A stretch of DNA of 40,940 nucleotides, taken from positions 1 to 40,940 of the forward strand of contig JBKHHG010000002.1 of assembly GCA_046539225.1 (NCBI GenBank), written 5' to 3'. Made by a program: the position numbers. Positions 39,001 to 40,940 of the stretch are shown piece after piece. The stretch comes from Candidatus Nanohaloarchaea archaeon. GTDB taxonomy: Archaea; Nanohalarchaeota; Nanosalinia; Nanosalinales; Nanosalinaceae. Position 1 is the first letter of the stretch, and each line of letters starts with the position of its first letter.

Positions 39001-40940
39001 CTGCGACTCCAACATCTTTGAATCTCTTTCACCTGAGAACACTACTTCACTGGCGCCCCACTGCCTTGCTGTAAGGCCTACATGCGTGGAGATCCTGTCA
39101 TCTCTTCCCGCTCGATGGCCAAGCCGGAGAACCTTTATCATATTCTTCGATAACGTGGAGAAGATTATTAAGAATGAGAGCCCGAGACATTAATACCAAT
39201 GAAAGGTGGACACCCTACTCCACGACCACGTATCTCCAGCTCAGAGCTTTAACTCTGGCGCCCAAAACCCTTTCTATCAAAACGTAAAAGTTGATTCTCA
39301 ATGATCCAAGTAGAACTACCAGACGGCTCAAGTTTAGATATAGAGGAAAACTCGACAGTAGAAGACGTCGCCTACAAAATAGGCACAGGCCTCGGCGACG
39401 ACACCGTCGCAGGAAAAATAAACAACGAACTCGTCGCCAAAGAAGAAAAAGTCAACGAAGGCGACAAAATAGAGATAATAACAGAAGACTCAGACGAATA
39501 CATCGACGTCCTCAGACACTCCGCCGCCCACGTCTTCGCACAGGCATTAAAACGCATCTACGGCGACGACGTAAAACTGACAATCGGGCCGTGGACCGAC
39601 GAAGGCTTCTACTACGACATCAAAGGAATAGAAATCGAAGAGGAAGACTTCGAGGAAATCGAAGAAGAAATGGAGAAGATCGTAGAAGAAGACCTGGAAA
39701 TAGAGCGGGAAACGCTTTCAAGAGAGGAAGCAGAGGAGTTCTTCGAAGACAACGAATACAAGAGGCAGATTCTGGATGAAGAGGCCTCTGAAGGAGACGA
39801 TGTGTCGTTCTACACACAGGGAGAGTTCAAGGACCTGTGTAAAGGACCTCACGTTTCCTCGACTGGAGAGGTCGGCGGCTTCAAGCTGCTGGAGATCGCT
39901 GGAGCGTACTGGAGAGGCGATGAAGAAAACGAGATGCTGACCCGTGTCTACGGAACCGCTTTCCCATCCGAGGACGAGCTTGAAGACTTTATGGAGAAGA
40001 AGCGGGAGGCGGAGAAACGCGATCACAGGAAGATCGGTCGGGAGATGGATCTTTTCTCGGTTCCGGAGCATGCTCCTGGGGCGCCACATTACCATAGAGC
40101 CGGGATGGTTATCAGGCGAGAGCTTGAAGAGTACATTAGAGAGAAGAATGAGGAGCTTGGTTACGAGGAGGTATGGACTCCTGAACTGAATAAGGCCGAT
40201 CTCTGGAAGAAGACCGGGCACTACGAAGCGTTTAAGGAGGACGGCGAGATGTTTGCCTGGGAGCAGAACGATGAGGAGTACGGCTTGAAGCCTATGAACT
40301 GCGCCAACCACTCGCATATCTTCGACTCCAACACAAGAAGCTACAAAGACCTTCCTATCAAACTTTCCGAGTTCGGAACTGTAAACAGGAATGAACAAAG
40401 CGGAGAGCTTTCAGGCCTTCTCAGAGTAAGAGTATTAACCCAGGACGATGGACACGCCTACATCAGAAAGGATCAAATTGAGGAAGAGATTAAGGCCCAC
40501 CTGGAGAAAATTATCGAGATGTACGACGAGTTCGGGTTTGATGTAAACTTCATCATGGAGACAAAGCCTCCGAAAGCTCAGGGACCCGACGAACTCTGGG
40601 ATGAAGCCGAAGAATCTCTCAGCAACGCAATGGACGAAGTAGTAGGCGACTACGAAGTCAAACCGGAAGAAGGCGCATTTTATGGCCCGAAAATCGGTGT
40701 AGAAGTGGAGGACGCGATCGGCAGAGAATGGCAGCTCGGGACAGTCCAGCTCGACTTCGTAATCCCGCGCAACTACGGATTGAAGTACCAGGGAGAAGAC
40801 AACGAAGAACACTACCCTGTCATGATCCACAGAGCAATTTTAGGATCAATCGAGCGTTTCATGGGCGTCATGATGGAACACTTCGCAGGAGACTTCCCAA
40901 CCTGGCTCGCACCAGAACAAGTCCGCATTTTACCTGTAAC

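Follow-up and report, generated by a model that had tools for sequence, protein, structure and literature searches.

Leader cassettes with a predicted hungry-codon +1 frameshift before archaeal aminoacyl-tRNA synthetase and amino-acid genes

The thrS gene in the DNA analysed here (the window, 40,940 nt, contig C2 of the nanohaloarchaeal genome G000) is preceded by a leader ORF in which an internal Shine-Dalgarno (SD) sequence, a P-site codon and a codon for the amino acid of the downstream synthetase follow one another, and the same cassette recurs with other sensor codons before other synthetase genes. Sequence comparison makes it likely that the ribosome reads the cassette as a modular sensor of amino acids, with a hungry cognate codon at which the SD stimulates a +1 frameshift. 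A broader proposal we regard as probable, if less firmly so: in this view T-boxes and attenuators have a widespread archaeal equivalent in the programmable cassette, which is retargeted by one codon, wired as AND or OR gates, governs genes for synthetases, biosynthetic enzymes and peptidases, and gives rise to fusion proteins specific to starvation.

To our knowledge, how archaea match the expression of synthetase and amino-acid genes to tRNA charging is largely open. The cassette appears to be a means of amino-acid sensing not described so far, built from known parts: the literature searched (titles and the starts of abstracts, subscription journals being mostly outside it) yielded neither a description of it nor an archaeal T-box or attenuator, and the portions of the Haloferax volcanii ribosome-profiling literature drawn on here (PMC10117724 with one supplement, PMC7261190) contain no mention of the element. 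If the reading is right, it would supply an archaeal link of tRNA charging to gene expression together with starvation-specific trans-frame proteins, it would have the archaeal anti-SD act during elongation, and several genes would be mis-annotated at their starts. Cultured haloarchaea and methanogens bear the cassette (Natrinema, Natrialba, Haloferax larsenii, Methanoculleus), which makes it testable now.

The thrS leader and its nanohaloarchaeal relatives

The survey's finding of a leader before thrS, with an early frame-0 stop and a +1 frame that stays open to the thrS start, proved accurate (Table 1). The leader opens ATG AAA GGT GGA CAC CCT:ACT (here and below a colon marks the shift site), has 17 codons before its frame-0 stop, and has the predicted trans-frame peptide MKGGHP-LHDHVSPAQ... 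Its transcript is probably leaderless, and a TATA-like word stands at -38..-26 in 43 of 58 leaders with a two-codon prefix. The 16S 3' end of G000, on contig C30, is GGATCACCTCC; AGGUGR is complementary to GGAUCACCUCC and forms the internal SD 5' of the shift site, and in the window it also contains a +1-frame GTG (39206-39208). Since the segment that pairs with 16S is AGGUG(G/A), the P-site codon is 4 nt away rather than the 3 nt claimed earlier; among ordinary G000 starts, 5 of 49 also have a 4-nt spacer, which is at the lower end of an initiation spacing that peaks at 6 nt. The YRY pattern of codon 5 was seen in the first loci and later demanded by the search pattern, and is thus not an independent count. 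The CCU_A site of the window is a weak member of the family, GAU_C and GCG_U sites elsewhere re-pairing similarly poorly, and the argument rests on UUU_A relatives at thrS. The proximal block, in which the TATA match is degenerate, is a candidate basal promoter on sequence grounds. A divergent 174-aa gene on the minus strand (38617-39141), putatively for an archaeal tRNA 2'-O-methyltransferase, shares the promoter region with the leader.

Table 1 Features at the thrS locus of the window (roles at the shift are predicted; promoter positions in the last column count from the ATG named)
Feature	Position	Strand	Remarks
TATA-like box of leader promoter, TTATTAAG	39165..39172	+	starts 34 nt 5' of leader ATG
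Leader ORF, frame 0, MKGGHPTPRPRISSSEL	39199..39252	+	ATG 39199-39201, stop 39250-39252
Internal SD, AGGUGG	39204..39209	+	complementary to 16S end, last pair G-U
Codon 5, CAC, pattern YRY, E site at shift	39211..39213	+	
P-site codon CCU	39214..39216	+	weak re-pairing variant (CCU to CUA)
Sensor codon ACU (Thr)	39217..39219	+	cognate to thrS; Thr in 19/19 leader-bearing nanohaloarchaeal thrS loci
+1 frame, 29 codons	39215..39304	+	TGA 39302-39304 overlaps thrS ATG 39301 (AUGA)
Proximal promoter-like block	39248..39277	+	TTTAAC at -53, AAAACC..TTTCTAT at -37..-24 from thrS ATG
thrS, threonine-tRNA ligase	39301..40940	+	runs off contig; Pfam TGS and tRNA_SAD

The leaders earlier placed elsewhere in G000 were found at tyrS (C31:4290, MKGGCF:Y, +1 stop at +7) and at the his operon (C10:4939, MKGDYD:H). 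For valS the peptide MTYSIKGGRF:V and the +1 stop at -6 stand, but the ATG lies at C18:5853 and the cassette reads AAG GGT GGC, not AAAGGTGGA. The Leu leader on C23, MSTSARTKGGRV:L, is likewise present, before an orphan and a PDT/aminotransferase/PDH/chorismate-mutase operon, and a Leu cassette before this Phe/Tyr operon is not cognate in the narrow sense. Candidates for aspS, trpS and metS in G000 showed no leader. On the minus strand of C10 (~4495-3670) a second His cassette (GGT GAG TAT GTT:CAT) opens an orphan ORF that ends in a stop overlapping the start of hisS; His cassettes also open related ORFs at two other loci (L025, L293), and between the two His cassettes of C10 lies an ORF that is presumably AbrB-like. 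The hisS gene there (minus, ~3577) has an in-frame TAA near codon 33, an assembly error or the mark of a pseudogene.

The motif ATGAAAGGTGR is present in 56 of 70 genomes of the phylum. Five complete genomes hold 25 matches, 20 of which precede a synthetase or the his operon and are cognate without exception, the other 5 being unrelated. When loci were anchored on thrS instead, a leader was found in 19 of the 25 nanohaloarchaeal loci with enough upstream DNA, always with Thr at codon 7. The fetched loci were then pooled and yielded 178 distinct matches to a pattern in which the SD, the YRY codon and a choice of P codons known from the first loci were fixed, with any A codon allowed; 133 with their own ATG and outside long ORFs were kept and 45 dropped. 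Synthetase starts within 330 nt were called by our own N-terminal patterns, with one representative per family confirmed in Pfam. Cassettes next to a synthetase, a subset of the 133, are cognate in 72 of 72 cases (Thr 22, Ser 12, Gly 12, Val 12, Tyr 5, Cys 4, His 3, Phe 2), and because the genomes are kin and the counts overstate independence, this figure shows conservation, not 72 independent events. The P-site codon is UUU in 111 of 133 cassettes, and frame 0 holds one cognate codon, without a run of them. In CGU-GGU-C variants the 16S pairing keeps the same register and the +1 stop is still at AUGA.

A cognate codon before a synthetase gene is also what a T-box would offer, and GGUGGACACC resembles the UGGN-ACC box of T-boxes. 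That the leader is a T-box-like RNA binding uncharged tRNA directly is nevertheless extremely improbable: the T-box covariance model of Rfam gave no match up to E=1 at 6 loci including the window leader, the codon is found 3' of the box at a distance of 6 nt, where a T-box has it far 5' in a stem I, and the cassettes carry frame constraints. In T-boxes the N of UGGN varies with the tRNA discriminator; 102 of 133 cassettes have GGA at codon 4, irrespective of the amino acid.

In the five complete genomes the leader stands before thrS, serS, valS and glyS in 4 of 5 each, before lysS in 4 of 4, before bacterial-type proS in 2 of 2 and archaeal-type proS in 1 of 5, directly before hisS in 2 of 6, with 2 further cases at operon distance, and before leuS and pheS in 1 of 5 and 1 of 3. 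None was found in this inventory before cysS (0/2), ileS, aspS and gltX (0/5 each) or metS (0/5, with upstream DNA partly covered). Beyond the synthetases, Ile cassettes precede threonine ammonia-lyase, Ile/Leu cassettes precede orphans and M20 peptidases, and there are seven Trp-cassette operons, every one ending in trpS, one with trpBA and one headed by a TrpD-like gene; in several Trp operons the first cassette ends more than 100 nt before any start. Small repeated palindromes (GAAACTTCT...AAGTTTC type) are inserted in the spacers of five loci (L001, L003, L011, L016, L023), where the +1 frame stays open. Records titled Colwellia polaris or Bacillota (L058, L574, L699) contain nanohaloarchaeal or methanogen-type loci and are probably mis-binned contigs.

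Translation of the +1 frame

Frame statistics, the offsets of tandem cassettes, genes that start only at a cassette, the dependence on the P codon and an aromatic cluster in methanogens together argue that the +1 frame is translated from the cognate codon, and lend support to the hungry-codon frameshift proposed in the survey. The +1 stop falls within -17..+10 of the synthetase start in all 72 cases, 32 of them an exact AUGA, as in gene pairs coupled by termination and reinitiation, in which the upstream stop is at or near the downstream start. The -1 frame stops within -20..+15 of that start in 7 of 72, and frame 0 stops 45-161 nt upstream of it in all; a dinucleotide shuffle leads one to expect 18.4 open +1 frames against the 72 observed. 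A +1 stop at the sensor codon would be possible in 26 cassettes and occurs in none of them.

Cassette pairs up to 100 nt apart follow a strict rule, one bacterial chance pair left out of the count. Eleven are in frame and always for different amino acids (Val, Ile, Leu; one triple), six are offset by 3n+1 and always for the same amino acid (Trp three times, Ser, Pro, His), and none within this distance is offset by 3n+2. In each 3n+1 pair frame 0 is closed by a stop ahead of the second cassette, and four of the six have no ATG on the path. These arrangements suggest that in-frame tandems would work as OR gates over different amino acids, and +1-offset tandems as AND gates on one. A Ser AND-gate (L301, G063) precedes a 102-aa orphan, and a Trp AND-gate (L300, G065) leads into a HisC-like aminotransferase for which the nearby ATG is out of frame, a possible error, being seen in one genome only.

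Some genes appear to have no start other than the cassette. Conservation of a GNAT-family protein in four genomes (G046, G052, G053, G067) begins with the codon that follows the shift site, and its first in-frame ATG comes at codon 72-103; since the break is at the same place in all four, sequencing error is no explanation for it. In G003 the TrpD-like gene lacks a start codon before codon 95, and alignment to a solved TrpD (query 109 to chain 67) sets the start of the fold near residue 43. Of the fusion ORFs, 3 of 13 do have an upstream in-frame ATG (L189, L212, L260). The P codon in turn depends on the base that follows it: UUU precedes sensor codons that start with A, G or U in 108 of 117 cases, and those starting with C in 3 of 16, where GUU or GAU is found instead, a pattern that recurs for Leu, His and Pro and that is expected if UUU would slip too easily onto UUC.

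The same sensor and outputs could be had without a frameshift if a stalled ribosome dropped its short peptidyl-tRNA and restarted at the +1-frame GUG within GGUGR, a distinctly unlikely course. Such a GUG is found in nearly all cassettes, the CGU-GGU variant included, and most fusion ORFs have no other start close by. A restart leaves unexplained, however, the P-site UUU and its avoidance before C, cassettes without the GUG exist (L262 with CAG GGG GGA, L123 and one second cassette of a methanogen), and no SD was seen ahead of the GUG in the loci inspected.

Haloarchaea and Methanomicrobiales

The statement that haloarchaeal loci have no cognate leader was a remark on valS and does not carry over to thrS, where 9 of 29 gene-anchored haloarchaeal loci have a leader of the form M-x-G-x-x-F:T, one of them a variant without GGUG. 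With a search pattern that included the Thr codon at least 120 loci matched, and among the matches listed 104 of 120 precede thrS; the leader is borne by Natrinema, Natrialba, Halosimplex and Haloferax larsenii, among others. Relative to the thrS start, the +1 stop falls in the interval -20..+40 in 92 of the 104 matches listed, and the -1 stop does so in 5. In most haloarchaea among these matches the +1 stop comes 22-37 nt past the start, an overrun that exceeds the spacings tested in H. volcanii (parts of PMC6728339); in 7 of the 104 the +1 frame runs more than 140 nt past the start or has no stop in view, and in 4 it stops 26-68 nt early. The ThrRS behind such leaders (L117, L122, L401, L436) has an MSESDSQEQ-like N-terminal extension, often with the +1 stop inside it. 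A haloarchaeal pattern that was too strict matched 7 of 301 genomes, and GGTGRCYGCTTT remained at control level in 41 haloarchaeal genomes, its 30 fetched matches being the known thrS leader only. Non-Thr cassettes in 81 Halobacteria gave 9 matches, none before a recognised synthetase, and ATGAARGGTGGAYGYTTT across all genomes gave bacterial matches without the cognate layout.

Codons 1-4 of the haloarchaeal leader can pair with a segment past the frame-0 stop, with a compensatory C-G/U-A change; the pairing score is 7.5 or more in 75 of 95 leaders and in 17% of shuffles. The predicted helix may restrict the reloading of ribosomes. It also speaks for attenuation by stalling alone, in which a pause at the hungry codon, without a shift, would alter RNA folding or termination by aCPSF1/FttA; aCPSF1 scores above the cut-off in 25 of 29 genomes and prefers U-rich RNA (parts of PMC7515710 and PMC11616081), and some +1 frames end far from the start. 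Stalling alone nonetheless seems unlikely: it makes no prediction about the +1 frame, the tandem offsets, the fusion genes or the aromatic cluster, a single codon is a weak stall signal next to the runs of bacterial attenuators, nanohaloarchaeal leaders have no excess pairing (0.83 in real and 0.83 in shuffled sequences, a weak test), and aCPSF1 was not found in G000, an 82%-complete genome. Exclusion of FttA by ribosomes is presented as a hypothesis only (parts of PMC11616081), and polarity may add to the frameshift model as an output. In two genomes aCPSF1 is interrupted by a long in-frame insert, possibly an intein (G023:C12:7021-10587, open frame of 1225 aa; G026:C36:17306-20551, open frame of 1090 aa).

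In Methanomicrobiales a leader M-x-G-(G/E)-C-F:F-A-G-x-x-F:Y stands before the ADH synthase gene, whose identity is backed by TIGR01949 above cut-off in 3 of 3 tested. A pattern for it gave 91 matches, 89 of them before ADH synthase; as the pattern was built from these loci, codon identity is circular here, which does not apply to the identity of the gene. A cluster of Phe, Tyr and Trp codons closes the +1 frame, whose stop is 35-108 nt and mostly about 50 nt upstream of the start: its last 14 codons are 47% F/Y/W against 20% and 9% in the other frames, and Tyr plus Trp make up 22.6% against 5.9% and 0.2% in the others and 5.8% in shuffles (75 distinct leaders). Opening of an SD-hiding hairpin by a ribosome at the +1 stop is modestly supported by one test and not by another: an ensemble calculation raised the openness of the SD from 0.23 to 0.36, with 52 of 77 leaders more open and 15 less, and a cruder one found no opening (4.3 vs 4.6 paired nt).

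Proposed mechanism, known systems and promoters

In our model a ribosome would start on the near-leaderless AUG and meet the order observed in the leaders, SD, 4 nt, P codon and cognate codon. With charged tRNA plentiful, the cognate codon would be decoded and translation would end 3-32 codons on, no less than 45 nt upstream of the start of the regulated gene. When charged tRNA runs short, the A site would stay empty and the short-spaced SD:16S helix would, by analogy with prfB and Ty1, let the peptidyl-tRNA slip by +1. A -2 shift would lead into the same frame and may take the place of the +1 shift. The shifted ribosome could then terminate and reinitiate at the synthetase start, as for thrS in the window, run on into a protein without a start codon of its own to give a fusion protein, or, in Methanomicrobiales, stop at the foot of the SD-hiding hairpin. 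Slow A sites are known to favour +1 shifts, with first-position G:U tolerated, and in prfB the shift is promoted by an SD lying 3 nt upstream (sections of PMC5009743). In H. volcanii reinitiation at AUGA is strict and SD motifs are not used for de novo starts (parts of PMC6728339); its AUGA reinitiation is here extrapolated to nanohaloarchaea.

Most genes keep a second, proximal promoter-like block, which would probably supply basal expression. Leader-less orthologues retain the same TATA-like block before their start, and in G065, which has lost the leaders of thrS, valS, glyS and serS, it stays in place; this retention leads us to picture two promoters at the locus, a proximal one for basal expression and a distal one for the regulated transcript. 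A conserved AAAACC..TTA block had been considered as a partner of the leader SD and was rejected as promoter-like, because leader-less orthologues keep it. The proximal blocks could make the leader a minor input. Losses such as those in G065 are also what one would see if the leader were vestigial or neutral and the genes ran on their proximal promoters, but this is very improbable given that codon, frame and spacing are kept across at least 8 paralogous loci and in three distant archaeal groups.

Bacterial attenuators (trpL, hisL, thrL, ilvGEDA) and T-boxes act on synthetases, trp, ilvA and the aromatic pathway, with tRNA charging as the signal. The cassette has the same targets and the same signal; it uses one codon and a change of frame where attenuators use codon runs and terminator/antiterminator hairpins, and T-boxes bind tRNA directly by RNA. 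An attenuator-type aromatic run occurs only in the +1 frame of the methanogen leaders.

The layout had been likened to the bacterial prfB shift site, and the internal SD that pairs with the 16S end bears this out. According to the sections of a 2016 review drawn on here (PMC5009743), prfB has a short frame-0 ORF and, immediately 5' of the shift site, an SD inside it, as the cassette does; a slow A site that senses and a functional product from the +1 frame would likewise be common to both. The P-site codon of prfB re-pairs after the shift although its first position may be mismatched; the UUU of 111 of 133 cassettes may do likewise, and the CCU_A of the window and GAU_C are poor at it. The likeness fails at the spacer (4 nt vs 3 nt in prfB, sections of PMC5009743) and at the A site, a swappable sense codon in the cassette and UGA of a release-factor gene in prfB. 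The cassette is moreover archaeal, has many targets, is often a separate uORF coupled to the gene, and occurs in tandems. On the proposed reading it works as prfB does but departs from two features that define prfB, and it cannot be classed with the T-boxes or the classical attenuators.

In telithromycin-induced ermC and in E. coli pheL a leader shift likewise carries ribosomes across a spacer and opens a downstream start, but the former is drug-induced and the latter was judged incidental (sections of PMC5009743), and neither has a conserved cassette of SD, slip codon and cognate codon. A slowly decoded A-site sense codon drives +1 slippage at Ty1 CUU_AGG_C and in other hungry-codon shifts, which unlike the cassette are fixed-ratio or incidental; the same review, in the sections drawn on, states that no starvation-specific trans-frame proteins are known (PMC5009743). 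The Saccharolobus fucA1 gene, given in parts of a 2021 review as the only frameshift reported in an archaeal cellular gene, also has a programmed shift, but of -1 and heptamer type, and without amino-acid sensing (PMC8211752).

At one Trp locus (L294-L299, L311) the cassettes and trpS are kept and the cargo fused behind the cassette is swapped (GNAT, M20 peptidase, TrpD-like, GCS2-like, orphans), an arrangement that resembles an expression platform for acquired genes.
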